Shown piece by piece: positions 1 to 45,862 of a stretch of 64,000 nucleotides of DNA. The first letter of the stretch is position 1. The number at the start of each line of letters is the position of its first letter. A program made the translations under genes and the position numbers. The stretch comes from an uncultured Candidatus Cloacimonadota bacterium (GTDB lineage: Bacteria > Cloacimonadota > Cloacimonadia > Cloacimonadales > JAJBBL01): assembly GCA_964490765.1 (NCBI GenBank), contig CAZBDV010000010.1, positions 2,451 to 66,450 on the forward strand. Direction: 5' to 3'. A model generated the notes under the pieces. That model was not told where the DNA came from. It did no database searches and worked only from the letters and a program-made list of their open reading frames with translations.

Positions 1-273
1 CATTTTCACGATGTGGATGATAACGGGCATAGATACGGACCTTACAGCGAGCAGGTTCTGGAAGCGATCGAGAGAATCGGAAATTATGTAACTTCTCTGG
101 CCAACGAGTGGGAGGGGGAAATATTTATCTTTTCCGATCACGGTATGCATCAATATATTGACCGGGAGAGTGGAGAATATCACGGTACGCATTATACCGC
201 CAGCGCGGAAGATATAATCGGGATATTTGCCAGACTAACCGGCAAAGGAGAAGGAGGAATGAGTGAAGAGTAA
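1..273 (+). CDS. Alkaline-phosphatase / nucleotide-pyrophosphatase superfamily enzyme, C-terminal fragment (5' end outside window)
   Basis: Frame is open from nt 1 (HFHDVDDNGHRYGP...IFIFSDHGMH). DxxGHxxGP and SDHGM metal-site motifs typical of this superfamily. Stop at 271-273. Confidence 0.6.
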   Translation, partial: HFHDVDDNGHRYGPYSEQVLEAIERIGNYVTSLANEWEGEIFIFSDHGMHQYIDRESGEYHGTHYTASAEDIIGIFARLTGKGEGGMSEE

Positions 274-3810: not shown

Positions 3811-3818
3811 TTCATCTG

Positions 3819-3843
3819 TTAATCCCTCAGAGTGAGGGGTTAA
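3819..3843 (+). terminator. Stem-loop after the PP-loop ATPase gene (no clear U-tract)
   Basis: TTAATCCCTCA gag TGAGGGGTTAA: 11-bp stem with one G-U pair, 9 nt after the stop. Confidence 0.35.
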
Positions 3844-3948
3844 GCTAACTTCTGGGAAATCATAGAGTTAATCTCATTGACAAAGATATTGACAGGGGAT
3901 TAGTAATTCTTCGAGAGTTAACATAAGCTTAAAACCGAGGGAGGAGTA

Positions 3949-13767: not shown

Positions 13768-13822
13768 GACGGAATAAAGAGCCATGGAAGACTCTTTTTC
13801 CTATAACATTTGGAGAGTGATG

Positions 13823-21863: not shown

Positions 21864-24800
21864 TTACTTAAGGAGAGTCATCTTTTTTATCTCCCGGTAC
21901 CCTCTATCCGTTTGCAGGTAGTAGAAATAGATTCCAGAAGAACAGTTATCACCCTTTTCATCCTTTCCATTCCAGTCAATCTGATGATATCCGGGCAGGT
22001 ACAGATCATCAATGATCAGGGTCCGAACTTTCCGTCCTGCTATGTTGTAGATAGTCAGTGTAACCCTGCTCTCTTCAGCAAGCGAGAATTTTATAAGCGT
22101 ATCGGGATTGAAGGGATTGGGTATGGCATTATGCAGCTTTGTCTCCAGAGGTTCGACAGGATCATCGATACTGCTCACTATCTCATATTCTGCGACAGCT
22201 ATATCGCTCGGAAGCCATTCAGCCTTATAGGCTCGGGCTTTTAGAGTAGTATCCTGGTTCAGCAAAACAGGTTCGCTGTATAAATAGGAATTCTGAGTGG
22301 GATCACTCCCGTTCAGAGTATAATAGATGTGAGTATCTTCGATAGTGCAGCTAATGGTAACGAGAATCTGTTCTTCATAAGTTCCTGCTTCTGGTGAGAA
22401 TGCTGGAGTAGATATCTTTGGCGGGACAATAATCGTTACTGATTCCGAAGGATCTGATTCCGCTATATCATAGAGGGCAGTAACGTAATATGTATAGGTT
22501 GAATCAAACTCGATATCATTGTCCAGATAGTTGAACTCTGTTATCAATTCCTCATTGATCATCTCCTCATTTCTGTAAACATTGAAACCGAGAAACTCCA
22601 GGTTTCGCCGATTCTCTGCCCTTTTCATCAGGGGTGGTTCATCAATTAAGGGCAGCCTGGAAGCATAAAAATCGGGTGAGAGGTACCATACGAGATAGAT
22701 CGACTCATAGTTGTTCTGTGGTGTAGCATTCAGGTATTGCGGGATTGGAGGGGAGACGAATTGCAGTTCGAAATCAACTCCACCTGTCGTAGTGTTAGGT
22801 TCTACAAGTACCTCTTCTATTATGAGTGTCTGGTAGTACTCCAGAGAAGCTCTGACTGCGTAAACACCCGGAATGAGTGGCAGGGAATAATAACCTTCAT
22901 TATCGGGATTGACACTGAAACCGGAAGCGGAAACCTCAACCTCAGATACTTCGCCATATTCTCCTGCAAGGGTGACAATCCCCTCAATTGAACCGGCAGA
23001 AGTAGCATCAGCAATGATAACATCGTCAATACACCAATTTCTGTCATTTTCGGCAGTATAGTTCCATTTGAGTCTGACATCGGAATGACTAGCAATCTGG
23101 GGAACGGAGAGATAACAATAAGCCGGATTGTCTGTTGTCTCTGACCAGCTCTCCAGAGTAACCCAGTTAAGACCATTATCGATACTGTAGGAGAGGGTAC
23201 CTGTTGCAGTGCCGGAACCTCTTCTGAAGTAATGAGTGAAAGAGATAACGGGTTCGACACAGCTGGTCAGATCGATCCTGGGTGTTATGAGATCTGCATT
23301 CTGAGCATTACCAGTCCCATAATAATTGCTGTTGATATATGCATAATTACCAGTTGTTCCTATCAGGCCACTATAAGTCATGGATCCGAACTCCCAGGTC
23401 TGTCCCATTCCATTATAGTCGATACTCTGCCAGAGGTCAGGTATATCGAACGATTCGTTAAAATATTCGCCAAACGGAAGGTTTAGAGAAGAATAATCCG
23501 TTCTCCCAACGGCTCTTCTTCCGGAGGAGTATTCATAGGCTGCTGTATAAGAGAAGGCTTTGTAATAGTATTTAGTATTCTCCTGCAGACCTGTATGACT
23601 GAAGGAGTTGGTACTGCCAATATAGAGAACAGTTCCCCCACCCGGTATCTCTTCCCCGACATCATAGGAAGAACCGGTATCCGGAGAGCCCAGAACATCA
23701 TTCTCCGACCAGATAATCATCACGTTATCGTTATTGCTGTTTTGCTCCCAATCCAGCTCTATCTCAGTCAATCCAGCTGTTGTTGCGGTGAAAAGAGAGG
23801 GGTTCATAACATCACCGAGATAAGTCTGGGTTAAGAGTAGAGCTTCGTTTGCATTGAGTCTCCCACTACCAAGTAGCCCTAAATAATTGGGATTAACAGA
23901 ATAATGATCGTCAGCACTGTCACTCAAGATATCAAGGACTGTATCATTATCGAGTATGACATCATAACGGTAAGCGAGTGAGATAACAAGTGCTGCAACC
24001 CCCGAGACATGTGGACAGGCAACTGAAGTTCCCTGGGCATATTCATATCCATTATTCATTACTGTACTCAAAATTCCTCTGGCAGAGATTATATCGGTTT
24101 CTCCTCCAGGTGCAGAAATATCGATCCAGCTGCCGTAATTAGAATAATAGGCCTTCTGGTCCTGGTTCGTGGTGGCTGCTACAGCATAAGTCCCGGAATA
24201 AAAGGCGGGATACCAGTCACCGGAAGAATCACTGTTACCGGCCGCAAAGATTACTATCCCACCATCCATAACATCCCCGCCACCATTAGTGTTGAAATAA
24301 TCAATAGCATCAAGAACAATCTGCTCATATACACCTGCCGGGGTATAAGTCCAGCTGTTCTGTGATATTGCCGCCCCAATATCTGCTGCTCCTATCATTG
24401 CTAGATGTATATTATTGAAACTATTCTCACTGACAATCTGGGCACTCATCAATCTTATGCCGTCAGAACTGCCGGAACCTCCCGCTATACCGGCAATACC
24501 GGTACTATTGTTGGTAGCGGCTGCAATTATTCCGGCAACGAATGTCCCATGATCTCCAGGAGTTACCGTCATACTGTTACTGTGATAATTGTAACCTGTA
24601 TATGGCCACATATTCGGTGCCAGATCTGCATGATCGTAATCTATACCCTGGTCAAGAACTGCTACAATGACATCGGAATGCCCTTTTTCGATATTCCAGG
24701 CGTTCACCATAGATATATCTGCTCCGGGAGTTCCCCCAACCTGACCAGTATTATTCAGATTCCACTGACTGGTAAACTGGGGGTCATTAGGTGTCCAGCG

Positions 24801-25298
24801 GGGAGTGTCATCTGCAGCGTTTCGCTTAACTTCATAGTTAAGCAGTTTCTTCTTGTACTCCGGTTCAGCGATACTAATTTCCGGTAACTTCTCATAGGCA
24901 GAGACAACTTCAGGAATAGCAAAATCGGTGGAAAAATGCAGTTCATACCAGAGATGGAAACCCCATTCACAATGCCTGGCAGAATTCTTCTCATCCAGTA
25001 ACTCGGAATCGTATAACCAGCGAATATCCCTGACAGCATAGATGCTGTTCAACTCATCAATCGCTGCTATCCCGAATCGGATAATACTTACACCATCAAC
25101 CACTGCGGGTTGCAGGTTAAGCTTAGAAGAATATTCGGGGTTGATCTTTATTCTTATATGTCCGTTATAATAAGCAGATTCTTCCAGAGCAGCCAGGTCA
25201 ATGGGTGGAAGTTCTCCCCTCTGTAAAGGTATCGCGTTGAGAAGCCCACACAGAGCAATGGTGACTGTTAGGATGGTGATCATTCTTCTTAGTATCAT
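21864..25298 (-). CDS. Secreted subtilisin-like serine peptidase (S8) with accessory beta domains and a T9SS C-terminal sorting domain
   Basis: Catalytic triad contexts VAVLDQGIDYDH (D), HGTFVAGIIAA (H), GTSVACPHVSGVAAL (S). Signal peptide. Fn3-like and IYYTLNGSDPT (chitobiase-C-like) modules. C-terminus IPNPFNPDTLIKFSL...SGIYFYYL...KKMTLLK. Confidence 0.9.
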   Translation of the reverse strand: MILRRMITILTVTIALCGLLNAIPLQRGELPPIDLAALEESAYYNGHIRIKINPEYSSKLNLQPAVVDGVSIIRFGIAAIDELNSIYAVRDIRWLYDSELLDEKNSARHCEWGFHLWYELHFSTDFAIPEVVSAYEKLPEISIAEPEYKKKLLNYEVKRNAADDTPRWTPNDPQFTSQWNLNNTGQVGGTPGADISMVNAWNIEKGHSDVIVAVLDQGIDYDHADLAPNMWPYTGYNYHSNSMTVTPGDHGTFVAGIIAAATNNSTGIAGIAGGSGSSDGIRLMSAQIVSENSFNNIHLAMIGAADIGAAISQNSWTYTPAGVYEQIVLDAIDYFNTNGGGDVMDGGIVIFAAGNSDSSGDWYPAFYSGTYAVAATTNQDQKAYYSNYGSWIDISAPGGETDIISARGILSTVMNNGYEYAQGTSVACPHVSGVAALVISLAYRYDVILDNDTVLDILSDSADDHYSVNPNYLGLLGSGRLNANEALLLTQTYLGDVMNPSLFTATTAGLTEIELDWEQNSNNDNVMIIWSENDVLGSPDTGSSYDVGEEIPGGGTVLYIGSTNSFSHTGLQENTKYYYKAFSYTAAYEYSSGRRAVGRTDYSSLNLPFGEYFNESFDIPDLWQSIDYNGMGQTWEFGSMTYSGLIGTTGNYAYINSNYYGTGNAQNADLITPRIDLTSCVEPVISFTHYFRRGSGTATGTLSYSIDNGLNWVTLESWSETTDNPAYCYLSVPQIASHSDVRLKWNYTAENDRNWCIDDVIIADATSAGSIEGIVTLAGEYGEVSEVEVSASGFSVNPDNEGYYSLPLIPGVYAVRASLEYYQTLIIEEVLVEPNTTTGGVDFELQFVSPPIPQYLNATPQNNYESIYLVWYLSPDFYASRLPLIDEPPLMKRAENRRNLEFLGFNVYRNEEMINEELITEFNYLDNDIEFDSTYTYYVTALYDIAESDPSESVTIIVPPKISTPAFSPEAGTYEEQILVTISCTIEDTHIYYTLNGSDPTQNSYLYSEPVLLNQDTTLKARAYKAEWLPSDIAVAEYEIVSSIDDPVEPLETKLHNAIPNPFNPDTLIKFSLAEESRVTLTIYNIAGRKVRTLIIDDLYLPGYHQIDWNGKDEKGDNCSSGIYFYYLQTDRGYREIKKMTLLK

Positions 25299-25525
25299 GG
25301 AATATCAATCTCCCTGTATTTAATTTATAACAGTAACTATCATATATTTCTGATGTCAATAATTATCTGACATCTAACAAGACTATGGAAGGAGAGTTCA
25401 GGCAAATCATTTATCAATTATTCTCATCTCTAACCGAGAAAATGGATTTTTTTTTTGCGCTGGAGTAGAAAGTCGTTAGATTGGTTAGTAAATGATAACA
25501 TAAAGTGGTTGGCAAGGAGTTACTT

Positions 25526-26347
25526 ATGTTAAGAAAAATTATCGAAATCGACGAAGAGAAGTGTACTGGATGCGGGCTCTGTATACCCGACTGTCCGGAG
25601 GGAGCATTACAGATTATTGATGGTAAGGCTAGACTTATCAGCGACCTTTTTTGTGACGGTCTGGGAGCTTGTGTAGGGGCCTGCCCCGAGGGGGCTATGC
25701 ATGTCGTAGAGCGAGAGGCACCACCCTATAATGAAGAGATCGTAATGGAGAATATAATCAAAGCGGGTCCGAATACGATTAAGGCTCATCTGGAACATCT
25801 ACTCGATCATGGTGAGCACGATCTTTATGCAGAGGCAGTAGCAGTCTTAAAGAAGAAGAATCTTCCTGTTCCCGAGATATCCGAGAATGTAGGGAAGATG
25901 GCTTGTGGTTGCCCCGGTTCTCATACGAGAGCGATATCTCGGGAAAATCCAGAGGAACCTTTATCTTCTGTGAAACAGAAATCGGAGCTGAGGCAGTGGC
26001 CTGTGCAGCTACATCTGATCAATCCTCAGGCACGGTATCTCGACAATGCTGATATTTTGCTTGCTGCTGATTGCACACCCTTTGCGTATGCTAATTTCCA
26101 TCAACGATTCATCAAAGGTAAGATAGCAATCACTCTCTGTCCAAAGTTAGACCAGGGAATGGAAGATTATCTGGACAAACTGCTAACGATCTTCAAGACT
26201 CACGATATCAAATCTGTTACGGTAGTACATATGGAGGTTCCCTGTTGTACCGGTATAGTTCTTCTTGCAGAGCGAGCGATCAGGGAATCAGGCAAAAACA
26301 TTATTTTGAAAGAATACACCATCTCGGTAGACGGCGAGATTATCTGA
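25526..26347 (+). CDS. 4Fe-4S dicluster domain protein with a Cys-rich C-terminal domain
   Basis: CTGCGLCIPDCP and CDGLGACVGACP ferredoxin motifs, then further CGCP / CC motifs. ATG at 25526 follows AAGGAG (track start 25505 is a GTG). Confidence 0.75.
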   Translation: MLRKIIEIDEEKCTGCGLCIPDCPEGALQIIDGKARLISDLFCDGLGACVGACPEGAMHVVEREAPPYNEEIVMENIIKAGPNTIKAHLEHLLDHGEHDLYAEAVAVLKKKNLPVPEISENVGKMACGCPGSHTRAISRENPEEPLSSVKQKSELRQWPVQLHLINPQARYLDNADILLAADCTPFAYANFHQRFIKGKIAITLCPKLDQGMEDYLDKLLTIFKTHDIKSVTVVHMEVPCCTGIVLLAERAIRESGKNIILKEYTISVDGEII

Positions 26348-26366
26348 ACCGGGAGGATCAGGAATT

Positions 26367-26966
26367 ATGATACAGAAGAGAATGACGCAATCAGAGCGTC
26401 AGAAACAGATAGTTGGCGAGGCGATGAAGATCATCAACAGGGAGGGATATGCCGCCTTTACGACACGAAGGCTTGCCCGCCAGATCGGTATAAGTGAACC
26501 GGCTATATACCGTCATTTCGCCAGTAAAGATGAGATTATCATCAGCATCATATCGAAGATGGATGATCTCTGGTTAGAACTCGATCTGCTACTGCAGGAT
26601 ATCGACGATATTGAAGAGAAGTTCTGTACTTTTATTATGATGCACTTCCGCTATATCGAGAATAATCCTGATATTCTGGCAGTTCTCTTTGCCGATGAGT
26701 ATATCAGATTGAACAAGGCTGTCAGAGAGCATCTCTACAGGGTAACCGATAAACGATTCAATTTTCTTAACGAACTTATCGAGAAGATCATAGAGTCGAA
26801 TATGACTAAGGGTATCAATCCTAAAGCACTGGCAATAATAATAGTTGGTGCAATAAGAACTACGGCACTTAACTGGCGGAATGCAAATTATTCCTATTCC
26901 CTGGTCGAGATGGGAGAGGATATCTGTATAAATTTAGCGAATATGATATTATGCAACAAAAAATAA
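26367..26966 (+). CDS. TetR/AcrR-family transcriptional regulator
   Basis: N-terminal HTH FTTRRLARQIGISEPAIYRHFASKDEII. 199 aa. Confidence 0.85.
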   Translation: MIQKRMTQSERQKQIVGEAMKIINREGYAAFTTRRLARQIGISEPAIYRHFASKDEIIISIISKMDDLWLELDLLLQDIDDIEEKFCTFIMMHFRYIENNPDILAVLFADEYIRLNKAVREHLYRVTDKRFNFLNELIEKIIESNMTKGINPKALAIIIVGAIRTTALNWRNANYSYSLVEMGEDICINLANMILCNKK

Positions 26967-26986
26967 AAGATTGGAGGTAATTAACG

Positions 26987-28600
26987 ATGTTCTGTTATCA
27001 ATGTCAGGAAGCACTCAATAACAAAGGATGCGAGAGAGTAGGGGTTTGCGGTAAGAAGCCGGAAACAGCAGAATTACAGGATTTACTGATCTATGTCAGT
27101 AAGAAACTATCAGAAACGGCCCTTGAAGCTACAGGGAAGGGCATTTCTACCGATACAGCAGGTGAATTGGTTATCAAAGGGCTCTTCTATACGATTACCA
27201 ATACGAACTTCGATAACGAATCTCTGAAGCAGATGATTCATTCCCTGTGTGACGAGAAACGGCGACTTATGAAGCAGGTTGATCCTGAAAGGGCTGCGAG
27301 AATCCCGACAGATGAGGAGATACTACAGAAGGCCGGAGAGGTTGGTGTGCTGGCAACCAGTGATGAGGATATTCGTTCTCTCAGCGAGCTTTTAATCTAC
27401 GGTCTGAAAGGGATGGCAGCCTATGCAGAACATGCCCTAGTATTGGGTAAGAGAAGCCTGGAAGTAGAGAAGTTCATGTTCAGAGCTCTGGCTACAACTC
27501 TTGATGAAAATCGTGATAAGGACACAATGCTCAATCTCGTAATGGAATGTGGCGAGAAGGGAGTCCAGATAATGTCACTGCTTGATGAAGCTAATACCGG
27601 GACTTACGGTAAAACAGAGCCCACAGAGGTCAACATAGGTGCAGGAAAGAATCCTGGGATTCTCATCAGTGGTCACGACTTGCGTGATCTGGCAGATCTG
27701 CTTGAGCAGACGAAAGATAGTGGAGTAGATGTCTATACTCATGGAGAAATGTTACCTGCTCACGGTTATCCTTTTTTCAAGAAGTATCCACACCTTGTGG
27801 GAAACTATGGAGGCTCCTGGTGGCAGCAGCCCAAAGAATTTGAGTCATTTAACGGCCCGATCCTTATGACGACCAATTGTATCGTTCCACCACGTGAATC
27901 CTATAAATCGAGAATCTTCACCACTGGTGTAACAGGTTATCCGGGATGTGAGCATATCCCCGACAGAAAAGGGGAGGAGATGAAAGATTTCGCGAAACTG
28001 ATTGAGCTGGCCAAAAAGAGTGCCCCACCAGAGCAGTTGGAAGAGGGAAGTGTGTTTACCGGGTTCGGTAAAGATACCCTGCTGGCTAACAAAGAGAAGA
28101 TAATCGATGCAGTCAGCCAGGGTTTAATTAAGAGATTTGTCGTAATGGCAGGTTGTGATGGCAGAATGCCGAGCCGTAATTACTATACCGATGTTGCTGA
28201 CAAATTACCAGATGATACGATCATCCTCACTGCCGGCTGTGCCAAGTATCGTTATAACAAACTCCCATTGGGCAATATTGGTGATTTCCCCAGGGTTCTT
28301 GATGCAGGACAGTGTAATGACTCTTATTCTCTGGCGGTACTGGCTCTCAAGCTCAAGGAAACTCTCGATCTCGACGATATAAATAAACTGCCTATCTCTC
28401 TCGATATTGCCTGGTATGAACAGAAAGCTGTTCTGGTTCTTCTGGCTTTACTATATCTCGGGTTCAAGAATATCAGATTGGGACCAACTCTCCCCGCATT
28501 CCTCTCATTGAATATTGCAACCTTCCTTGTAGAAAACTTCGATATTAAACCGATTGATAACCCGGAGTCCGATATCAATGCTATGATGCATGGACAATGA
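26987..28600 (+). CDS. hcp: Hybrid-cluster protein / hydroxylamine reductase
   Basis: N-terminal MFCYQCQE...C...GVCGK cysteine cluster, 537 aa, conserved CNDS / GCDG regions. Confidence 0.9.
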   Translation: MFCYQCQEALNNKGCERVGVCGKKPETAELQDLLIYVSKKLSETALEATGKGISTDTAGELVIKGLFYTITNTNFDNESLKQMIHSLCDEKRRLMKQVDPERAARIPTDEEILQKAGEVGVLATSDEDIRSLSELLIYGLKGMAAYAEHALVLGKRSLEVEKFMFRALATTLDENRDKDTMLNLVMECGEKGVQIMSLLDEANTGTYGKTEPTEVNIGAGKNPGILISGHDLRDLADLLEQTKDSGVDVYTHGEMLPAHGYPFFKKYPHLVGNYGGSWWQQPKEFESFNGPILMTTNCIVPPRESYKSRIFTTGVTGYPGCEHIPDRKGEEMKDFAKLIELAKKSAPPEQLEEGSVFTGFGKDTLLANKEKIIDAVSQGLIKRFVVMAGCDGRMPSRNYYTDVADKLPDDTIILTAGCAKYRYNKLPLGNIGDFPRVLDAGQCNDSYSLAVLALKLKETLDLDDINKLPISLDIAWYEQKAVLVLLALLYLGFKNIRLGPTLPAFLSLNIATFLVENFDIKPIDNPESDINAMMHGQ

Positions 28601-28711
28601 ACCTGTAGAAAATAGGTGATTCAGTAGTTATATATAACCTTGTGAACTTAATGTCGTAAAGCATCAATTAAATCAAATAACTAACCGATAAAATGAGGGA
28701 AGGAGATTGCT

Positions 28712-29902
28712 ATGAAGATAAAGATCAAGAATAACATTTACTGGGTAGGTAAGACAGACTGGGAGTTGAGGACTTTCCATGGTTATGAGTATTCTACCCA
28801 TCGTGGTTCGAGTTACAACTCTTATCTCATTAAAGAAGATAAGATTGCTCTGATCGATACTGTCTGGAAACCATTCAGTAAAGAGTTCGTAGAAAATCTG
28901 GCCAGTGAGATCGATCTTAATAAAATCGACTATGTTATCGCCAATCATGCTGAGATTGATCATAGTGGCGCCCTGCCGGAATTAATGGAACTCATCCCCG
29001 ATAAACCTGTCTACTGCACAGAGAACGGGATAAGATCACTCAAAGGGCATTATCACAAAGACTGGAATTTTAAACCGATCAAAACAGGGATGAGACTAAG
29101 TCTAGGATCAAAGGAGTTGGTCTTCATCGAAGCACCGATGCTCCATTGGCCTGACAGTATGTTCGTCTATCTGACCGGAGATAATGTTCTTTTCAGTAAT
29201 GATGCCTTCGGCCAGCATTATGCTAACGAATATCTCTTCAATGATAAGGTTGACCAGTGTGAACTCTTTCAGGAGGCGATAAAATACTATGCTAATATCC
29301 TGACACCTTTTAGTCCTCTGGTTAAGAAGAAGATAGAGGAGTTCATCTCGCTCAACCTGCCACTCGATATTATCTGCACCAGTCACGGAGTTATCTGGCG
29401 TGATAACCCGATTCAGATAGTAGAAAAGTATATGAAATGGGCTGATAATTATGCCGAGAACCAGATCACACTCATTTACGATACGATGTGGGACGGAACG
29501 AAAAGGATGGCAGAACATATCGCGAAAGGAATAAAACAGGCAGATAGAGACGTTACTGTCAAACTCTACAATGTCTCTCTGTCCGATAAGAACGATATTG
29601 TTACCGAGATATTCAAGTCAAAGGGTATACTTATAGGATCACCTACAATAAACAGAGGAATACTCTCTGCTATTGCCGGGCTGCAGGAAGAAATCAGAGG
29701 ACTCGGCTTCAAAAAGAAGAAAACAGCAGCATTTGGAACCTATGGCTGGAGCGGTGAATCAGTCAAGATGCTTACAGAAGGGTTGAAGTCTGCAGGCTTC
29801 GAAGTAGTTAACGATGGAATCAAAGCTCTATGGAATCCCGATAATAAGAGTCTCGAGGAGTGTATCACATTCGGAAAGAGCTTTGTTGAGTTATGTAAGT
29901 AG
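28712..29902 (+). CDS. Flavodiiron protein (FprA-type, metallo-beta-lactamase-like plus flavodoxin-like domains)
   Basis: HAEIDHSG di-iron motif. C-terminal flavodoxin-like segment (ILIGSPTINRG...AAFGTYGWSGE). 396 aa. Confidence 0.85.
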   Translation: MKIKIKNNIYWVGKTDWELRTFHGYEYSTHRGSSYNSYLIKEDKIALIDTVWKPFSKEFVENLASEIDLNKIDYVIANHAEIDHSGALPELMELIPDKPVYCTENGIRSLKGHYHKDWNFKPIKTGMRLSLGSKELVFIEAPMLHWPDSMFVYLTGDNVLFSNDAFGQHYANEYLFNDKVDQCELFQEAIKYYANILTPFSPLVKKKIEEFISLNLPLDIICTSHGVIWRDNPIQIVEKYMKWADNYAENQITLIYDTMWDGTKRMAEHIAKGIKQADRDVTVKLYNVSLSDKNDIVTEIFKSKGILIGSPTINRGILSAIAGLQEEIRGLGFKKKKTAAFGTYGWSGESVKMLTEGLKSAGFEVVNDGIKALWNPDNKSLEECITFGKSFVELCK

Positions 29903-29957: not shown

Positions 29958-29989
29958 AAAGAGCAGCTATCAAGCTGCTCTTTCTTTTT
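29958..29989 (+). terminator. Rho-independent terminator after the flavodiiron gene
   Basis: AAGAGCAGC tatcaa GCTGCTCTT followed by TCTTTTT. Confidence 0.75.
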
Positions 29990-30182
29990 GTAAATCTGCA
30001 ATATCTTGCAGTGACCAGGAACACATCCTTTATAATTATCAGACTACACAAATTTATTGCTTGACATATTATCCCTGTTTTCAGATGCAGTTATGTGAAT
30101 CAATTCTATGATCGCGGGGGTATTATCTCTGTATAGTACCGAAGGGTCGCCAATTCAGTAAGATAAGTTAGAGGAGAATGCT

Positions 30183-31136
30183 ATGAGAAGTAGTGTGATC
30201 AGTATCGGAGTTGTATTGTTGCTCATCTTTGCAGGATGTGCAACGGTTCCGCAACCTAATGTGGTCAATGTATCGACTGATACACCTGCGGTCAGTCCTG
30301 TACTTGCAGACAATCAGCCAAGATCATTGAAACGTGTAGTGGCCATAGCTCGGTTCAGTAATGAGACAAACTATGGTAAAGGGTTATACTTGGGTAACGC
30401 ATATGATGCTGGGAAGCAGGCGATGGATATAATGAATACAAAATTGACTCAATCGGGTAAATTTATACTCCTCGAGAGGTCTGACCTGGAATTTCTGGAG
30501 AGAGAGAAGGTTTTTGATCATTCAGCAATGGATCAGATACCGGCTGACTATTTGATAATCGGTTCTATAACCGATTTCGGCAGACGAGCAACAGGGAAGG
30601 TGGGGATTTTCAGCCGCACTCAGAAACAGACTGCTTACGCTAAAGTAAATGTCCGGCTAGTTGATGTGAGAACAGGTCAAATAATATATGGAGAGACAGG
30701 TGAGGGAGAGGCTTTTAGTGAAGCTGGAACTGTTTTGGGAGCCGGGTCTCAGGCTGGTTACGATTCTACATTGAACGATAAGGCGATTGATGCAGCCATC
30801 AGTAAACTAGTTGTCAATATCTCCAATAACTTGCTCAACAATCCCTGGAGGTCATACATACTTTCCCAGCAGGACGGGATCTGGATGCTTGCTGGTGGGA
30901 AAACTCAAGGTATCAAGGTCGGTGATGTATTTACTGTAAAGTTAAGGGGAGATACGGTTATCAATCCGCAGACGAAACTTCCCATAGAGCTACCGGGAAC
31001 CAACGTAGCCAGGTTACGGGTGATACAATTGACAGGAGAAGATCTACAGAGTGAAATCTCTTTCTGTGAGTTACTCGATGGGGAAATTGACTCCGGACAA
31101 TTGACCCGATACTTCGTCACCGAAGACGAACAATAA
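30183..31136 (+). CDS. CsgG/HfaB-family lipoprotein with an extra C-terminal beta domain
   Basis: Lipobox IFAGC. KRVVAIARFSNETNY...LERSDLEFLEREK...IIGSITDFG matches the CsgG-family core. About 95 extra C-terminal residues. Confidence 0.75.
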   Translation: MRSSVISIGVVLLLIFAGCATVPQPNVVNVSTDTPAVSPVLADNQPRSLKRVVAIARFSNETNYGKGLYLGNAYDAGKQAMDIMNTKLTQSGKFILLERSDLEFLEREKVFDHSAMDQIPADYLIIGSITDFGRRATGKVGIFSRTQKQTAYAKVNVRLVDVRTGQIIYGETGEGEAFSEAGTVLGAGSQAGYDSTLNDKAIDAAISKLVVNISNNLLNNPWRSYILSQQDGIWMLAGGKTQGIKVGDVFTVKLRGDTVINPQTKLPIELPGTNVARLRVIQLTGEDLQSEISFCELLDGEIDSGQLTRYFVTEDEQ

Positions 31137-31146
31137 GGGGGGGGTA

Positions 31147-31461
31147 ATGTATAAGAGCATGTTATCTTTGTTGATAGTAGTTACTCTATTGCTTGTTTTA
31201 ATTGGTTGTTCTCAAAACGAAGGGATTGTAATGACTGAAAAGCATGCTTATCTACAGTTTCTGGGAGATGCCACCAATATTGAGATCTCCATCGACGACA
31301 AAGAATTGGATATCGAAAAATATCGAAAAAACATCGTTAAGAACCATTTTCAATATGACCCCGGTTACCATCAGGTTGAAATATTTCGGCAAGGTCAGCT
31401 GATTTTAAAGCAAACAGTATTACTGGAAAGGGGTAAAATTACACAGGTGAACATACCATGA
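31147..31461 (+). CDS. Small lipoprotein (possibly PEGA-like beta domain)
   Basis: Lipobox VLIGC, 104 aa. GYHQVEIFRQGQLILKQTVLLERGKITQVNI resembles the end of a PEGA domain (weak). Confidence 0.6.
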   Translation: MYKSMLSLLIVVTLLLVLIGCSQNEGIVMTEKHAYLQFLGDATNIEISIDDKELDIEKYRKNIVKNHFQYDPGYHQVEIFRQGQLILKQTVLLERGKITQVNIP

Positions 31462-31835
31462 AGAAAAGACTATTATGGATTATTCCGTTATTCGTTATCA
31501 CAATTACCGCCTGTTCTCAGAACCAGACCGGATCTTATTACTGGGACAAATATTCCCATACGCAATATGCCTATCTAAAGAACCCTTCGCTCGAGACTCT
31601 GGACAGACATATAACAACTCTGGAGAAGATCATTTCGGTATCCAGACAGAGAGGATTAAAGGTTCCACCTGGTGTCTATTCCGAACTGGCTATGATGAAA
31701 TGGCTGAAACATCCGGAAGGTGACGTTAGCGAATATCTTCTGAAAGAAGTTAATGCCTATCCTGAATCGCAGGAATTTATCAACTTCTTGATCCTTAATC
31801 TCTTTGCTGGAAGTGAGGTGCATGATGAGGAGTAG
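31458..31835 (+). CDS. DUF4810-family lipoprotein
   Basis: Lipobox ITAC. YYWDKYSHTQYAYLK...LEKII...GLKVPPGVYSELAMM matches the recalled DUF4810 pattern (YYWG.Y....Y.YLK...LE....G..VPPG). 4-nt overlap with the upstream ORF. Confidence 0.7.
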   Translation: MKKRLLWIIPLFVITITACSQNQTGSYYWDKYSHTQYAYLKNPSLETLDRHITTLEKIISVSRQRGLKVPPGVYSELAMMKWLKHPEGDVSEYLLKEVNAYPESQEFINFLILNLFAGSEVHDEE

Positions 31836-31836
31836 T

Positions 31837-32517
31837 ATGACAGACAGTGTAGTGGTTCTCCTTATCATTATGACTTTTTGCCTGTTGTTCACATCCGGCT
31901 GTTCACAGAGTCTGACAAAGGGACAGGTATTTCCCAGAATGTATGAGGAACGACCAGTGACAATACTTGCCCTGCCACCAGTCAATAAAACAACCTCACC
32001 TGTTGCCAAAGAGTATGTGATCTGTACGATAACAGAACCATTGGGAAATACCGGTTATAATCTTTTACCGATTGTTATTACCAACGAGATATTGAAGATA
32101 GAAGGGCTGTATGATACCGAAGTTATCAATCCCACACTCTACCCCCAATTCCGGGATTTATTCAATGTCGACGCTCTTCTCTTAACGGAAATCTTCAGTT
32201 GGGATACGAGTTATTACGTGATTGGTGGTGAAGTGACTGTCGGGTTGAACTATAAACTGGTTTCAACTCATACTGGAGAGGAACTCTGGAAATATTCTGG
32301 AGCGAAAACAGTTGATACGACTAAAAAATCAGAAGGTGGAGGTTTATTTGGCCTGGCAGTTGCCCTGGTAGAAACAGCGGTAACTACTGCGGCAACAGAT
32401 TATATACCGATAGCTCGTGAGATTAATCAATCGATCTTCCAAAATCTGCCTAAAGGGAAGTATTCTCCAGAACACGGACTTGACCGGGACGACCCGGTAG
32501 TAATCGAAAAGCAATAA
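31837..32517 (+). CDS. DUF799-family lipoprotein (GNA1162-like)
   Basis: Lipobox FTSGC. ILALPPVNKTT...GYNLLPI...VDALLLTEIFSWDTSY...YKLVSTHTGEELWK aligns with the recalled GNA1162/DUF799 pattern. ATG at 31837 follows GAGGAG (track start 31804). Confidence 0.7.
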   Translation: MTDSVVVLLIIMTFCLLFTSGCSQSLTKGQVFPRMYEERPVTILALPPVNKTTSPVAKEYVICTITEPLGNTGYNLLPIVITNEILKIEGLYDTEVINPTLYPQFRDLFNVDALLLTEIFSWDTSYYVIGGEVTVGLNYKLVSTHTGEELWKYSGAKTVDTTKKSEGGGLFGLAVALVETAVTTAATDYIPIAREINQSIFQNLPKGKYSPEHGLDRDDPVVIEKQ

Positions 32518-39030: not shown

Positions 39031-39909
39031 ATGAAATCCTTATTTGCAATTGTTTTAGTCACACTGATAACCCTGTCTGGCTCGCTGATGGCAGAGCCCT
39101 GGAAGATCACCTCAGATGCCAGTTTATCTTTTAATCAGAGTTCGTACAGTGATAACTGGGCTGGAACTGAATTGGGAACAATATCCTGGACTGCCAAATC
39201 CAATACAACAGCTGAGAAGCAGTTATCAGAAATTTTACGTAATACGACATCTTTGAAATTATCTTATGGTCAGACCCATCAACAGAAGACGAGAATAGAT
39301 TCCGAGACAGGTGAAGAGGAGAAGCACTGGGGTAAACCGGAAAAATCAACCGATAAGATAGATCTGGAATCGCTGTTCAGGTTTACACTTCACGGTTATG
39401 TTGACCCCTTCTTTGCTGCTCGTTGGGAGAGTCAATTTCTAGATTTACGCTATGAGGACGAGACATATATCATTAACCCCCATCGTTTTACGGAATCTGC
39501 CGGTATTATGAGAAATTTCATAATGGAACCGAATCACACGTTAACAGCCAGATTGGGTGCTGCCTTCAGACAGTATATGGACCGTAATGAAGAGGTTCGT
39601 CTCGTAGAGACCATGTATGACGGTGGTATTGAATTCATCGCAGAGTATATGAAGAGATTCCTACCACAGGATATTTTTTATAACAGCAGATTACAGGTGT
39701 ATCAGGCATTATTCAACTCTGAGGAGGATGAACTTGTAGAAGATCACTGGAAACGTGTGGATGTAAAATGGGAAAATACTCTATCTACTCGAATCTGGTC
39801 AATAATCAATGCCTCACTCTTTTTTGAGACAGTATATGAAAGAGAAGAACATAAGAATCCACAATTTCGCCAGACACTTGGTCTGGGTATATTCTTTCAA
39901 CTATATTAA
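39031..39909 (+). CDS. Putative outer-membrane beta-barrel protein (DUF3078-like)
   Basis: Signal peptide, alternating amphipathic strands, SYSDNWAGTELGTISW motif, C-terminal GLGIFFQLY ending in an aromatic residue. Confidence 0.6.
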   Translation: MKSLFAIVLVTLITLSGSLMAEPWKITSDASLSFNQSSYSDNWAGTELGTISWTAKSNTTAEKQLSEILRNTTSLKLSYGQTHQQKTRIDSETGEEEKHWGKPEKSTDKIDLESLFRFTLHGYVDPFFAARWESQFLDLRYEDETYIINPHRFTESAGIMRNFIMEPNHTLTARLGAAFRQYMDRNEEVRLVETMYDGGIEFIAEYMKRFLPQDIFYNSRLQVYQALFNSEEDELVEDHWKRVDVKWENTLSTRIWSIINASLFFETVYEREEHKNPQFRQTLGLGIFFQLY

Positions 39910-40140: not shown

Positions 40141-42405
40141 ATGTCAGGTATAAGAGGTATCTTTACCGGTTTGTTAGTCTTAGGATTTTTCGCCATGGTC
40201 TCTCCAATCTTTTCTCAGAGTCTGGAGATAGAGGGCTGGGGGAGAGATAATTATGGCCAGATTACAGATATACCAGATGGGTCCGATTTTGTTTCGATAG
40301 CCTCGGGAGGAGATCATAGTGTGGCTATCAGACAGGACGGCAGCCTGGTGGCCTGGGGGTATAATGTCTATGGTGAATGTAATGTACCTGCAGGTTTCGA
40401 TTATGTAAAGGTCTCGGTAGGAAGAAACCACAGCATAGCGTTAAAAGAGGATAACACTATAGTTGCCTGGGGTAGAGATTGGAATGACGTACTGGCAGTG
40501 CCTGCCGGCAATGACTTTGTTGATATTTCGGCCGGTTATCAGCACAATCTTGCTCTGAGAGATGACGGTAGTATCGTGGGCTGGGGCAATAACAATTATG
40601 GCCAGGTCACTGTTCCTTTCGGGAATGATTATGTAGCGGTAGAGGCTGGTGGATATCACAGTGTAGCACTCCGTGAGAATGGGACTATTACCGCCTGGGG
40701 AAGGAACTGGCATAATGTTTTGAATGTTCCTGCCGGTAATGATTTTGTCGCTATCAGTGCCGGTTATTATCAGAGCATGGCTTTGAGGGAGAATGGTACA
40801 GTAGTAGTCTGGGGAAGTGACGAAGATGACCAGGTAAGTCATACACCAACAACTTCCGATTTTGTTGCTGTATCTGCTACAGGTAATGCTCACTGTATAG
40901 CATTAAGAGAGGATGGCAGTGTTATAGCCTGGGGTGCAGGAGAAGAGGGTGAAGATGGCTTATGGGATCATGGACAGAGTATCTATCCCGATGGGAATGA
41001 TTTTGTTGCCATTGCTGCTGGCAGATTACACAGCCTTGCACTCGTAATGACCGAGCCCCCTTCCGAATACACCCTTACTATTGGAGTTGAGGGAAACGGA
41101 ACAACCGATCCTGAACCGGGAGAGTATGACTATGATGTCGGTACTGAAGTTTTAATCACAGCATACGCTCAAGAAGGATGGGAGTTTGACAGATGGGTGA
41201 TCAATGGCGACGATGTTTTTGAAAATCCCCATACTTTGATAATGAATTCCAACATAACAGCAATAGCCCACTTTGTTCCTGCTGAATATAGCCTTGTAAT
41301 CGAGGTTGAAGGTGAGGGCACAACAGATCCGGAACCGGGTGAATACTTCTACATGGCGGGAGAAGAGGTTGAAGTAACAGCAATCGCTGATGAGTACTGG
41401 TATTTCTGGATGTGGGTTATCGATGATGATTCTTTCTTCGAAAATCCTCATACAGTGCTAATAGATGATGATGTTACTATAGTAGCGCACTTTTTACCTT
41501 TACCACCTCCACAGAATCTCTTTGCACTGGCAGGAGATGGCGTTGTCTGGTTGGAATGGGAATATCCCGACCTACCTGTCGATTTGCACTGTAATTCCAC
41601 GCCTATCGCAGTGGAGCAAACATACAAACGGGAGTTAGCAGAAAGGCAAGATTTTCAGGGCTTCAATCTCTACCGGGATGGTGTGCAGTTGAATACGGAA
41701 CTTTTGACAGAAAACGAATACGAAGATTCTGGTCTCGAGAATGGAGTTACTTATCTCTATTATGTAACAGCAGTTTATGCAGAGGGTGAGTCAGCCCAGT
41801 CCAATGAAGTGGAAGCCACTCCGGAAGAGTTGCTTCTTCCTCCTCCGACAGGTTTGGAAGTGGAAATGTTAGAAGATACTGTGACCCTGTCCTGGATAGA
41901 ACCTGATCATGGTGATCTAATCTTGACCGGGTATAATGCCTATCGTGACGATGTCATGATCAACTCTGAACTGATTGAGGAGACAAATTTCCCGGATACA
42001 AATTTCATTCCGGAACCAGGTGTTATCTATGAATACTATGTAACAGCCGTTTATCTCGATGGAGAGTCTGATCCTTCTGAGGTAGTGGAGTTTATGATAA
42101 CCGGTTTGGAAGATGATCTGGTTTCTGCAAGAACAGCCCTTCTGGGAAATTATCCCAATCCCTTCAATCCCCGGACAGCTATCTCTTTCAGTCTTGCTGA
42201 ACCTGGACCTGTCAGGATAGAGATCTTCAACAGCAGAGGTCAAAAGTTAAGAGAGCTGGTAGATAGTTATTACGATAGTGGTGAGTACAGTATAATCTGG
42301 GATGGGACAGGCGATAACAACCAGCAGGTTGGTAGTGGCATCTATATCTACAGAATGATCAGTAATAATTATCAGGAAACCCGTAAAATGATAATGTTGA
42401 AATAG
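40141..42405 (+). CDS. Secreted RCC1-repeat beta-propeller protein with InlB-B-repeat-like and Fn3-like modules and a T9SS C-terminal sorting domain
   Basis: About 7 repeats of the type DFV.I.AG..HS.AL..DG..V.WG.N.YGQ. Two YTLTI/YSLVIEVEG.GTTDPEPGEY...W.F..WVI modules. C-terminus YPNPFNPRTAISFSL...SGIYIYRM...TRKMIMLK. Confidence 0.85.
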   Translation: MSGIRGIFTGLLVLGFFAMVSPIFSQSLEIEGWGRDNYGQITDIPDGSDFVSIASGGDHSVAIRQDGSLVAWGYNVYGECNVPAGFDYVKVSVGRNHSIALKEDNTIVAWGRDWNDVLAVPAGNDFVDISAGYQHNLALRDDGSIVGWGNNNYGQVTVPFGNDYVAVEAGGYHSVALRENGTITAWGRNWHNVLNVPAGNDFVAISAGYYQSMALRENGTVVVWGSDEDDQVSHTPTTSDFVAVSATGNAHCIALREDGSVIAWGAGEEGEDGLWDHGQSIYPDGNDFVAIAAGRLHSLALVMTEPPSEYTLTIGVEGNGTTDPEPGEYDYDVGTEVLITAYAQEGWEFDRWVINGDDVFENPHTLIMNSNITAIAHFVPAEYSLVIEVEGEGTTDPEPGEYFYMAGEEVEVTAIADEYWYFWMWVIDDDSFFENPHTVLIDDDVTIVAHFLPLPPPQNLFALAGDGVVWLEWEYPDLPVDLHCNSTPIAVEQTYKRELAERQDFQGFNLYRDGVQLNTELLTENEYEDSGLENGVTYLYYVTAVYAEGESAQSNEVEATPEELLLPPPTGLEVEMLEDTVTLSWIEPDHGDLILTGYNAYRDDVMINSELIEETNFPDTNFIPEPGVIYEYYVTAVYLDGESDPSEVVEFMITGLEDDLVSARTALLGNYPNPFNPRTAISFSLAEPGPVRIEIFNSRGQKLRELVDSYYDSGEYSIIWDGTGDNNQQVGSGIYIYRMISNNYQETRKMIMLK

Positions 42406-43837: not shown

Positions 43838-45862
43838 TTATTTGAGAAGCATCATCTTACTATATAAGTCTCTTTCGGAGGTTTGCATACGAGAGAAATA
43901 GAGTCCTGAGGGGAGAAGATTGCCCTCCTGATCTTTCCCATCCCAGAGAACTTCGTATCTACCGGCTTCTTTATATTCATTGACCAGTATTTTCACCCTC
44001 TGTCCGCGGATATTATAGATAGTAATATTGACCGGAGTGTTCTCTTTAAGATCGTAAGAGATAACCGTTTCCGGGTTAAACGGGTTCGGTCTGGCCGAGT
44101 AAAGACGGGTATCCGAAATGAGGTGCTGATCATCATCTACTCCGGTAGTAATGATAGTATATTCTACTTCTGTGGTCGGACTTGCCTGCCAATCTTCATG
44201 GAAAGTTTTCGCCCTCAGTAGAACAGTCTCATCAATCAAGATCGGTATCTCATACAGAGTTGAGTTCTCTGTCGGTTCCTCTCCATTTAAGGTATAGTGG
44301 ATATTCCCGATCCCGTTCGGTGAAGTAAGATTAACATAGACAAAATTCTCATACTCGCCACCCGGTGGGTCAACTTCCGGAGCCGGTAACTGATCAAGGA
44401 CCGTAACATTGATTAAATTTGAAGATCCGGATTCTCCCAGATCCTGGTATACGGCAGTTACGTAGTATGAGTAGTCACCCGGGAAGAGATTGATATCCAT
44501 GTAATCGTTCGTATCCAGTAGTTCATCGTTGATAATCTCATAAGGTCCGGTTCCAAAAGTCTGTCTCCAGACATTAAAACCTTCCAGGACAATATCCTCA
44601 AGTTCAGGGGGGATAATGGGACTATCCCAGTTCAGGACTGCATTGAAGCCTTCGATGTTAACCTCTAGATTTAAGGGAACAGGAAGAACAATCTGATATG
44701 GTGCACCTCTGTGAACTATTCCATACTGGATACCACCGTCAAATGAAACGTTTTTTTTCAGGAGTTGAAAGCCACCTGAGTGATCGAGAAGCAGGGTAGG
44801 ATTTTCCCATATGTCTGTTCCGAAAGGATTACTTAATTCCCAGGTATCATTTGCATTATGGCTGTAGTAGATCAAACCAGTAGCAAAATTACCATCCACC
44901 TCTACCATTACTATATGAACATTTCCTTCCGGATCGACCACGATTGTTGGGTCAACCAGGGACAATGTCCCACTAACGAGTTCTGGAGCAGTCCAGATCA
45001 GGCTGTTTATATGACGTCTGCTGTAGTATGTCCTCCAGGGAAAGCCAAAGCCATCCTGGCCGGAATGGGCAAGATGTATTGTATTATCTATGATTTGGAT
45101 CGCAGAGGCGAGGTCATTAGCATTGGGTGTGTTGATTATCTCATAATTCCAGTCGAATTCTCCAGCCTCTTCATTCTGAGCGATATGGATATGATATTCA
45201 CCATACGTTCCTCCTCGATAGGCGATAGCTGTTATGCCACTCGTATCCACAGCGATAACAGGTTCCGCTCCCAGGCCAAATTCTCCCAGCCAGCTTTCCA
45301 TCAGGACATCGTGAGACCAGTTGCCGTTATAATCGGTTATATAAATCAATTTAGGTTCATCTGCCATATTTGATGTAATACCAACTATATGAACCTTACC
45401 CTGAGTGTCGATTGTAGCATCTATATAAGCGATATTACTCGTTCCAGTAGATATACTCTCTGTTGTCCAGTCTCCCGTTTCTTCCCGACTGACTTCATAG
45501 AGGGAGCCTCCACTGGCAGCGTAGAATTTGATTTCATTCTGATATGGATCCAGGATCAGAGCCATATCAATTGTATATCCAAAATCGGTTGTTATCAGTT
45601 CCGGGACTGACCATTCATCAGCGGTATTACGGTTAATATAATAGAGATTGAAGTTGTCTCCATCTTCCTGCCCGAATATAATGTGTATAGTGTTATCAGA
45701 ACTGATCTGTATAGACCGCTTTGCGATAGATTTGTTTACACTGTTACCACTAATCTCTGTCGTAATTGTATTATCCCAATCCGGTACCTGCGCCATCAGG
45801 ATATTGGCGAGAGCAACTAATATAGTTGCTGTTATAACTATAAGATACTTTCTTCCAGTCAT
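43838..45862 (-). CDS. Secreted beta-propeller-like protein with Fn3-like and chitobiase-C-like modules and a T9SS C-terminal sorting domain
   Basis: Signal peptide. Recurrent ...G..HI(V/A).. blade-like repeats. IHYTLNGEEPTENS module. C-terminus RPNPFNPETVISYDL...SGLYFSRM...YSKMMLLK. Confidence 0.8.
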   Translation of the reverse strand: MTGRKYLIVITATILVALANILMAQVPDWDNTITTEISGNSVNKSIAKRSIQISSDNTIHIIFGQEDGDNFNLYYINRNTADEWSVPELITTDFGYTIDMALILDPYQNEIKFYAASGGSLYEVSREETGDWTTESISTGTSNIAYIDATIDTQGKVHIVGITSNMADEPKLIYITDYNGNWSHDVLMESWLGEFGLGAEPVIAVDTSGITAIAYRGGTYGEYHIHIAQNEEAGEFDWNYEIINTPNANDLASAIQIIDNTIHLAHSGQDGFGFPWRTYYSRRHINSLIWTAPELVSGTLSLVDPTIVVDPEGNVHIVMVEVDGNFATGLIYYSHNANDTWELSNPFGTDIWENPTLLLDHSGGFQLLKKNVSFDGGIQYGIVHRGAPYQIVLPVPLNLEVNIEGFNAVLNWDSPIIPPELEDIVLEGFNVWRQTFGTGPYEIINDELLDTNDYMDINLFPGDYSYYVTAVYQDLGESGSSNLINVTVLDQLPAPEVDPPGGEYENFVYVNLTSPNGIGNIHYTLNGEEPTENSTLYEIPILIDETVLLRAKTFHEDWQASPTTEVEYTIITTGVDDDQHLISDTRLYSARPNPFNPETVISYDLKENTPVNITIYNIRGQRVKILVNEYKEAGRYEVLWDGKDQEGNLLPSGLYFSRMQTSERDLYSKMMLLK

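Follow-up and report, generated by a model that had tools for sequence, protein, structure and literature searches.

A four-lipoprotein operon with a CsgG-like protein from Candidatus Cloacimonadota belongs to a widespread subtype and may form a ring beneath the outer membrane

Introduction

The CsgG-like/DUF4810/DUF799 gene cluster is common in diderm bacteria. It encodes three lipoproteins in a fixed order and includes the meningococcal vaccine-candidate antigen GNA1162. In this work we analyse a related operon of four lipoprotein genes that lies on a contig from an uncultured Candidatus Cloacimonadota bacterium (GenBank assembly GCA_964490765.1, contig CAZBDV010000010.1). The whole stretch of DNA that was analysed, hereafter the window, is 64,000 nucleotides (nt) long. 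All open reading frame (ORF) positions follow the numbering of this window, in which the operon occupies 30183-32517 of the + strand. Its genes, ORF1 to ORF4, encode a CsgG-like protein, a 104-residue protein, a DUF4810 protein and a GNA1162-like/DUF799 protein.

The closest described system is the three-gene cluster of Acinetobacter baumannii UPAB1 (D1G37_12595-12605), which is needed for the production of poly-N-acetylglucosamine (PNAG), for pili and for biofilm. Mutants deleted for the CsgG-like gene or for the adjacent gene, Ab12600, no longer produce PNAG or bind Congo red, the csgG mutant loses Cup pili and matrix, and disruption of CsgG is reported to reduce biofilm (bioRxiv 10.1101/2021.05.19.444899). 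The same study describes the cluster as widespread, without curli genes and accompanied by additional genes in some species. The neisserial member, GNA1162, is an outer-membrane vesicle antigen that was reported to be surface-exposed by fluorescence-activated cell sorting (PMC6497663).

Two further systems are useful for comparison. In the flagellar motor of Vibrio, the H-ring is anchored to the inner leaflet via the lipoproteins FlgP and FlgO. A FlgT ring lies inside it, beneath the outer membrane and beside these lipoprotein partners, in a motor without a membrane pore (10.64898/2025.12.02.691832). In Campylobacter and Helicobacter, the proteins Cj0089-0091 and HP0018/HP1457 include a tetratricopeptide repeat (TPR) lipoprotein and an LpoB homologue (Cj0090, from the same operon) that are tied to envelope maintenance (PMC11394524). 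The Cj0089-0091 operon was considered as an example of the same module and rejected, as it is an LpoB/TPR operon rather than a DUF799/DUF4810 one.

An earlier note, made from the window sequence, had drawn attention to the four genes. Here we describe their structure and family membership, the predicted folds of ORF1 and ORF2, two subtypes of the module, the joint retention of two of its parts and its wide distribution. We then consider what the complex may do.

Materials and Methods

Relatives of the operon were collected by a genome scan with one genome per species. This returned 428 relatives, the best 80 of which were examined as loci; ORFs were called in these and searched with the window proteins by single-sequence phmmer. 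For sampling from the DUF799 side, ORF4 and GNA1162 were searched with tblastn against PLSDB, a collection that includes chromids and some mislabelled chromosomes. For example, the "plasmids" NZ_OL790812.1 (Proteus, 4.09 Mb), NZ_CP119142.1 (Neisseria gonorrhoeae, 2.17 Mb) and NZ_AP026896.1 (Aeromonas, 4.94 Mb) are evidently whole chromosomes. A metagenome scan was seeded with the short CsgG-like protein of the three-gene form.

Results

Two subtypes of the module

In all 78 of the genome loci that have downstream sequence, a homologue of ORF2 lies between the CsgG-like and the DUF4810 genes. The window proteins match all four family profiles, each built from at least 78 loci. The best 80 of the 428 relatives come from Cloacimonadota, Ignavibacteriota, Bacteroidota, Nitrospirota, Desulfobacterota, Calditrichota, Spirochaetota, Verrucomicrobiota, Chlamydiota, Campylobacterota, Bdellovibrionota and Gammaproteobacteria. 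The four-gene form also occurs in alpha-, beta- and gamma-Proteobacteria, and its range covers at least 12 phyla altogether. The PLSDB search found it in Prevotella, Polaromonas (pPNAP04), Novosphingobium (pLA5) and Paraburkholderia, where RefSeq labels the ORF2 homologue a "hypothetical protein".

The same search found a three-gene form in Ralstonia, Proteus, Cupriavidus, Neisseria gonorrhoeae (the GNA1162 locus) and Aeromonas. In these loci the CsgG-like protein is 223-248 amino acids (aa) long and stops exactly where the C-terminal domain of ORF1 would begin, and the DUF4810 gene follows directly. The metagenome scan added 78 further three-gene loci, none of which has the C-terminal domain or ORF2. 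Taking the scans together, the C-terminal domain and ORF2 are both present at every locus with a long ORF1 (82/82) and both absent from every three-gene locus (83/83). No case of one being lost on its own occurs across at least 12 phyla.

The C-terminal domain and ORF2 define a four-gene subtype; they are not additions specific to one lineage. The window operon is an ordinary member of this widespread, experimentally uncharacterised subtype, and since the subtype is found in at least 12 phyla including the Proteobacteria, its occurrence in a non-proteobacterial host is unremarkable. The earlier note had presented the module as a proteobacterial speciality into which an extra 104-aa lipoprotein had been inserted. 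Neither description survives the wider sampling, while the note's question about the 104-aa protein, whether it accompanies the module elsewhere, now has a clear answer: it goes with the long form of ORF1.

The three-gene forms make up one clade in neighbour-joining trees of the ORF1 N-terminal domain and of ORF4. A single event may therefore lie behind the association between the C-terminal domain and ORF2.

Some individual loci deserve mention. In a Syntrophaceae locus (L064, 2723-4167) the DUF4810 gene is followed by a tandem pair of DUF799 genes (240 and 231 aa), so that the fourth component has been duplicated locally. A contig binned as "archaeon" (DAOVNB010000181.1) holds the complete four-gene module within 2659 bp, and is most likely a mis-binned bacterial contig. 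The module is plasmid-borne on Novosphingobium pLA5, where it adjoins glycosyltransferase, kdsA and KpsF genes, and on Polaromonas pPNAP04, where it adjoins IS5 transposases and a TerD/VWA cluster; these plasmid copies hint at horizontal mobility. Finally, the DUF4810 gene of N. gonorrhoeae NZ_CP119142.1 (3557-3926 of the locus) is broken into two overlapping ORFs, at 3557-3847 and at 3738-3926; a frameshift in that strain is the probable cause.

ORF1 joins a CsgG-family domain to a conserved C-terminal domain

ORF1 matches the Pfam CsgG family (PF03783) with 110.1 bits (cut-off 20.8; E = 1.2e-31), which bears out the CsgG/HfaB assignment of the earlier note. The match pairs residues 48-225 with model positions 7-205 of 210 and leaves 92 C-terminal residues uncovered; a linker of only about 30 aa precedes the alpha/beta domain. 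The lipobox cysteine, Cys19, is invariant in alignments of 21 and of 72 sequences. A protein search with ORF1 gave 3629 matches at E <= 0.001. Lengths among the 120 best listed run from 302 to 343 aa; nearly all of these align over 93-100% of the query, and the non-identical full-length ones among them share 51-83% identity with ORF1. The roughly 95-aa C-terminal domain shows the same degree of conservation as the remainder of the protein, with NPQT...ELPG invariant. What had looked like an oddity of this one protein is therefore a property of a large subfamily.

The AlphaFold2 model of ORF1 has a predicted local distance difference test (pLDDT) score of 72, with 76-86 in the C-terminal domain and 50-65 in the segments that correspond to the membrane hairpins of CsgG. 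Its best match in the PDB is FlgT (3w1e, Foldseek E = 4.8e-15), with both domains aligned. The template modelling (TM) scores against FlgT in 3w1e and 8z5n are 0.57-0.62 across 279-287 columns, reaching 0.62 for FlgT in the Vibrio LPHT ring (8z5n). The match to CsgG (4uv2, E = 6e-9) involves the N-terminal domain only, and weaker structural matches were found to GNA1162, PelC, CT253 and HpaA. At the profile level, the ORF1 family matches CsgG (E = 1.9e-4), and the C-terminal-domain profile matches the beta-domains of TsaP (3jc8, E = 1.8e-4). Judged by the model and the TsaP match, the C-terminal extension resembles the FlgT_C/TsaP type of beta-domain. ORF1 as a whole is at least as similar to a non-pore ring protein as it is to a channel.

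ORF2 represents an unnamed lipoprotein family

ORF2 has no match above cut-off in Pfam or NCBIfam. It belongs to a lipoprotein family of about 100 aa for which neither database has a model. An exhaustive HMMER search places 743 representatives in the family at 50% identity. The 150 best listed relatives are nearly all 94-133 aa long and cover essentially the whole profile.

Is ORF2 restricted to one lineage? A word-indexed search suggested so, with 2 relatives for the single sequence and 23 for the profile. We reject this as an artefact of sensitivity, because phmmer on the ORFs of the loci recovered 78/78 and the exhaustive search recovered the 743 representatives.

The AlphaFold2 model (pLDDT 85) is a seven-stranded beta-sandwich. 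Its structural matches are weak and point to domains of the transthyretin or carboxypeptidase-regulatory type, a generic transthyretin/PEGA-like fold. At the sequence level the family matches PEGA and RodZ_C below threshold only: the window protein does not match PEGA (PF08308), and 5 of the 32 family members do so weakly (best E = 0.0035). Two other candidates were discarded as spurious. A 2126-aa protein (P0184) in which 14 stretches looked "ORF2-like" belongs to the CE2_N/PKD repeat proteins, and the only PDB entries found with the ORF2 profile were designed "Pizza" propellers.

ORF3 and ORF4 are a DUF4810 and a GNA1162-like lipoprotein

The earlier note had recognised ORF3 and ORF4 as DUF4810 and DUF799 proteins, and hidden Markov model searches agree. 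ORF3 matches Pfam DUF4810 (PF16068) over model positions 2-85 of 85 with 73.3 bits (cut-off 34.7; E = 2.4e-20), and its Cys19 is invariant in the family alignment. The family profile matches consensus TPR proteins (E = 2.9e-6) and CpoB (E = 1.4e-4), and on this sequence evidence we classify ORF3 as a one-repeat TPR lipoprotein. Eight family members match BamD weakly via the TPR motif. A weak NCBIfam match of ORF3 to BamJ (E = 0.034) was dismissed, as just 1 of the 31 family members shows it.

ORF4 matches the Pfam GNA1162-like/DUF799 family (PF05643) with 100.5 bits (cut-off 25.9; E = 1.1e-28). The Pfam scores of ORF1, ORF3 and ORF4 are much too high to be due to chance. It matches the GNA1162 structure (PDB 4hrv) at E = 6.4e-16 as a single sequence, over residues 32-187, and at E = 6.4e-58 with the family profile. 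The profile also matches PelC weakly (E = 0.13-1.5). We found no sequence link between ORF4 and the H-ring proteins FlgO or FlgP.

A translationally coupled operon

The four genes form one intact, translationally coupled operon (Table 1). Direct reading of the sequence gives the junctions. ORF1 and ORF2 are separated by 10 nt (TAA, GGGGGGGGTA, ATG), ORF2 and ORF3 overlap by 4 nt (CCATGA), and ORF3 and ORF4 are 1 nt apart (GAGGAG TAG T ATG). These spacings, and a lipobox on each protein (FAGC, LIGC, ITAC and TSGC), are as the earlier note had read them, and the lipobox cysteine is invariant in the alignments of all four protein families. The 4-nt overlap is kept in 61/75 loci and the order ORF1-2-3-4 is constant across all complete loci. 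Read from the ATG at 31837, ORF4 has the same length (226 aa) as the corresponding gene on the contigs of relatives.

The gene downstream of ORF4 is convergent. Together with the terminator-like hairpin upstream, this makes the operon self-contained. No further conserved neighbour was found around it in the 80 loci. A response-regulator "neighbour" in 16 of the 80 turned out to be linked through the REC domain only, with no orthologue at E <= 1e-20; just 1/79 loci have a sigma-54 promoter motif.

Table 1. Positions of the operon, its parts and other annotated features in the 64,000-nt window
Feature	Position	Strand	Remarks
Terminator-like hairpin	29958..29983	+	Ends the upstream flavodiiron gene and marks the 5' boundary of the operon; 11-bp stem with 5 G-C pairs, then a T run
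Shine-Dalgarno-like AGAGGAG	30170..30176	+	6 nt ahead of the ORF1 ATG; direct sequence reading
ORF1, 317-aa lipoprotein	30183..31136	+	CsgG/HfaB-family N-domain and C-terminal beta-domain
ORF1 signal peptide and lipobox FAGC (Cys19)	30183..30239	+	Alignments
ORF1 CsgG/TolB_N-type alpha/beta domain, aa 48-225	30324..30857	+	Pfam; hhalign
ORF1 counterparts of the CsgG hairpins, TM1 aa ~134-155 and TM2 aa ~176-196			Within the alpha/beta domain
ORF1 C-terminal beta-domain, aa 222-317, FlgT_C/TsaP-like	30846..31133	+	Profile and model matches
ORF2, 104-aa lipoprotein, lipobox LIGC (Cys21)	31147..31461	+	Small beta-sandwich (predicted)
ORF3, 125-aa DUF4810 lipoprotein, lipobox ITAC (Cys19)	31458..31835	+	Pfam
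ORF3 single TPR-like motif, aa ~70-104	31665-31769	+	Family profile
ORF4, 226-aa GNA1162-like/DUF799 lipoprotein, lipobox TSGC (Cys22)	31837..32517	+	Pfam; PDB 4hrv
ORF4 TolB_N/PelC-type alpha/beta domain, aa 37-200, and Gly-rich hydrophobic C-terminal helix segment			
BamA, PorZ-like protein and large proteins with type IX secretion system (T9SS) sorting domains	46400-48655; 54890-57298; 13784-16723; 21864-25298; 40141-42405; 43838-45862		

Genomic context and host

The window encodes BamA (46400-48655, 486 bits) and a PorZ-like protein, as well as at least five proteins with T9SS type-A sorting domains above the TIGR04183 cut-off. The BamA gene and the T9SS cargo show that the host has an outer membrane. 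The closest genome locus (L010) is from a metagenome-assembled genome of an uncultured Candidatus Cloacimonadota bacterium, with an ORF1 that is 70% identical and an identical gene order. These findings bear out the T9SS-type, non-proteobacterial host that had been proposed in the earlier note, and mark it as a diderm.

Among the T9SS-related proteins of the window are an S8 peptidase and an aminopeptidase-like protein. Upstream of the operon, a block at 25505-29902 encodes a 4Fe-4S protein, a TetR regulator, a hybrid-cluster protein (26987-28600) and a flavodiiron protein (28712-29902), and looks like a nitrosative or oxidative stress cluster. It is syntenic in one relative (L006, ORF2 65% identical) and is not conserved beside the module in other lineages. 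Within about 6-8 kb, the module is flanked by redox and ABC-transporter genes. A 292-aa ORF at 39031-39909 has no NCBIfam match at E <= 0.001.

Discussion

What might four lipoproteins of this kind do together? Our best explanation is built on analogy, and we would put belief and doubt in about equal balance. It holds that they form a ring-shaped complex beneath the outer membrane that aids the export or anchoring of surface polymers. All four would most likely be located at the outer membrane, on its periplasmic side, assembled into a single complex. ORF1 could form an oligomeric ring via its lipid-anchored alpha/beta domain of the CsgG/TolB_N fold. The solved proteins with related alpha/beta folds include the ring formers CsgG, PelC, PA3214 and FlgT. 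The C-terminal beta-domain would project into the periplasm and, with ORF2, form an accessory layer, while ORF3 and ORF4 would be the universal core partners that are common to the three-gene subtype. By analogy with the A. baumannii genetics, the complex probably supports the export or anchoring of surface polymers or the organisation of the outer membrane; secretion of an amyloid subunit is an improbable role for it. For ORF1 by itself, a ring of the FlgT or PelC style, lying beneath the outer membrane and forming no pore, is an even call.

Several points weigh against this explanation. No sequence-level match links ORF1 to FlgT, and sequence places ORF1 nearer to CsgG. Short amphipathic hairpins are present in ORF1. 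The Acinetobacter phenotypes belong to the other, three-gene subtype and are pleiotropic, and the surface exposure of GNA1162 fits a purely periplasmic complex poorly. The association between the C-terminal domain and ORF2 may reflect one gain or loss followed by co-retention instead of many independent events. Localisation, ring assembly, the contact between the C-terminal domain and ORF2, stoichiometry and function are all properties that we infer.

The strongest rival, which we regard as possible though doubtful, is that ORF1 is a true channel of the CsgG type. In this case some nine subunits would assemble and their two hairpins would build an outer-membrane beta-barrel pore, with ORF2-4 as periplasmic or surface accessories that gate or cap it or deliver its substrate, much as CsgE and CsgF function. 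This substrate could be a secreted protein, a polymer or the partner lipoproteins themselves; a surface-exposed GNA1162 would need an export route. The near-complete Pfam CsgG match speaks for this idea, as does the hhalign comparison with E. coli CsgG (probability 94.7%), in which the alignment passes through TM1. The motif GY(D/T)S that ends TM2 is common to ORF1 and CsgG. Hairpin 1 has an apolar face (T136, G138, V140 and V142, then Q149, A151, A153 and V155) and a polar one, and since it keeps this alternation a short barrel may be possible.

The same hairpins also provide objections. In CsgG they build a 36-stranded outer-membrane barrel; the counterparts in ORF1 are shorter than those of CsgG, by 6-7 residues in TM1 and by about 8 in TM2, which leaves arms of only about 5-8 residues. 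Unlike lipid-facing strands, these segments hardly vary and carry many charges. They rank with the best conserved and most highly charged stretches of ORF1, with G141, R145, Q149, G186, G188 and D194 invariant and with charges at R134, K135, D139, R145, K147, K148, E176, E180 and D194. Furthermore, ORF1 reaches 16.8 bits with the NCBIfam curli-CsgG equivalog (NF011731; cut-off 505), the 80 loci show no conserved candidate substrate gene beside the operon, and the best full-length structural match, FlgT, forms no pore. The secretion pore that the earlier note had offered as one possible role is thus not established. Our own estimate for ORF1 as a genuine channel is likewise tentative, below that for the non-pore ring.

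A bolder reading is that the operon encodes an ancient, autonomous envelope machine. The four lipoproteins would then form a multilayer ring under or partly through the outer membrane. ORF1, with its CsgG-type domain plus FlgT_C-type domain, would retain the architecture of the stock from which CsgG and FlgT come, and ORF2 would be the obligate partner of its C-terminal domain. Throughout a dozen phyla or more, the machine would carry out a general task that has so far been attributed to no machine: it might anchor or export surface polymers, for instance, or expose lipoproteins on the cell surface. We consider this unlikely.

Less likely again is a role in regulating or tethering the cell wall, in which LpoB/TolB_N-like lipoproteins reach peptidoglycan synthases, hydrolases or Tol-Pal and the TPR protein acts like CpoB. 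ORF1 exceeds the cut-off of Pfam TolB_N (25.1 bits, cut-off 22.4) and narrowly misses that of Pfam LpoB (22.2 bits, cut-off 22.3), the ORF3 profile matches CpoB, and the Campylobacter and Helicobacter operon with its TPR and LpoB lipoproteins offers an analogy in envelope maintenance. However, the NCBIfam LpoB equivalog (TIGR02722) gives ORF1 14.1 bits against a cut-off of 110.55, and no NCBIfam model reaches its cut-off for any of the four ORFs. Pfam and NCBIfam searches recognise no LysM, OmpA_C or SPOR domain in the four proteins, and no peptidoglycan-synthesis gene is conserved nearby in the 80 loci. In addition, the linkers of ORF2-4, from the lipobox cysteine to the first predicted strand, conserved motif or Pfam domain, are about 7-15 residues long, so these proteins cannot reach far from the membrane.

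An accessory ring of a flagellar or pilus basal body, like the FlgT H-ring or TsaP, is very improbable: it would account for the FlgT match of the ORF1 model and the TsaP match of the C-terminal-domain profile, but no flagellar or pilus gene is conserved beside the module in the 80 loci, ORF1 has no match to Pfam FlgT_N, FlgT_M or FlgT_C at E <= 1, and ORF1 is lipidated whereas FlgT is not described as lipid-anchored, that role in the H-ring belonging to FlgP and FlgO.

Compared with the searchable literature, the two subtypes, the coupling between the C-terminal domain and ORF2, the FlgT-like architecture of ORF1 and the ORF2 family without a Pfam or NCBIfam model are new. With these results a vague "curli secretion channel" annotation can be replaced by specific, testable hypotheses about a complex and a pore. 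They also call for caution: curli or amyloid secretion should not be inferred from a CsgG annotation in metagenomes.

How does the operon compare with known systems? The three-gene cluster (A. baumannii UPAB1; Neisseria GNA1162, PDB 4HRV) has the same three families in the same order, all of them lipoproteins, and its CsgG-like protein shares the loop motifs FGR, AYAKV and YDSTLN with ORF1. It differs in having neither ORF2 nor the C-terminal domain of the CsgG-like protein, both of which the window has, and the window ORF4 shares only about 28% identity with the three-gene forms. The cluster and the window operon both lack curli genes. As the earlier note had observed, no csgA, csgB, csgE or csgF gene accompanies the operon: none lies near it or is conserved beside it in the 80 loci (the whole window was not scanned with curli hidden Markov models).

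Curli CsgG of E. coli (PDB 4UV3, 4UV2 and 6SI7) is a lipidated alpha/beta protein of the same Pfam family as ORF1, and its ring has nine subunits. ORF1 departs from it in its shorter, highly conserved hairpins and in its extra C-terminal beta-domain, and the three lipoproteins that share its operon are unrelated to CsgE or CsgF. PelC (PDB 5T10, 5T11 and 9H80) and the PqiC-like PA3214 are outer-membrane lipoproteins with a related alpha/beta fold. The former builds a 12-subunit ring beneath a separate porin and the latter an 8-subunit ring. Unlike these systems, the window operon has no PelB-like or MCE partner genes, and the sequence similarity is marginal. TsaP, from the secretin-associated ring of type IV pili, has repeated beta-domains that align to the C-terminal-domain profile of ORF1. 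It carries a LysM domain and no CsgG-like domain, and the window module has no secretin or pilus genes nearby.

Finally, FlgT of the Vibrio H-ring (PDB 3W1E and 8Z5N) has an alpha/beta M-domain followed by a C-terminal beta-domain, as ORF1 does. The two are 11% identical; ORF1 has no FlgT_N domain, is lipidated and has no flagellar context, and the FlgT ring has 26 subunits and no lipid anchor. The FlgT ring is built on the same fold as ORF1, and the Vibrio H-ring, in which concentric, lipid-anchored rings surround it, serves as a precedent for a lipoprotein ring that forms no pore.

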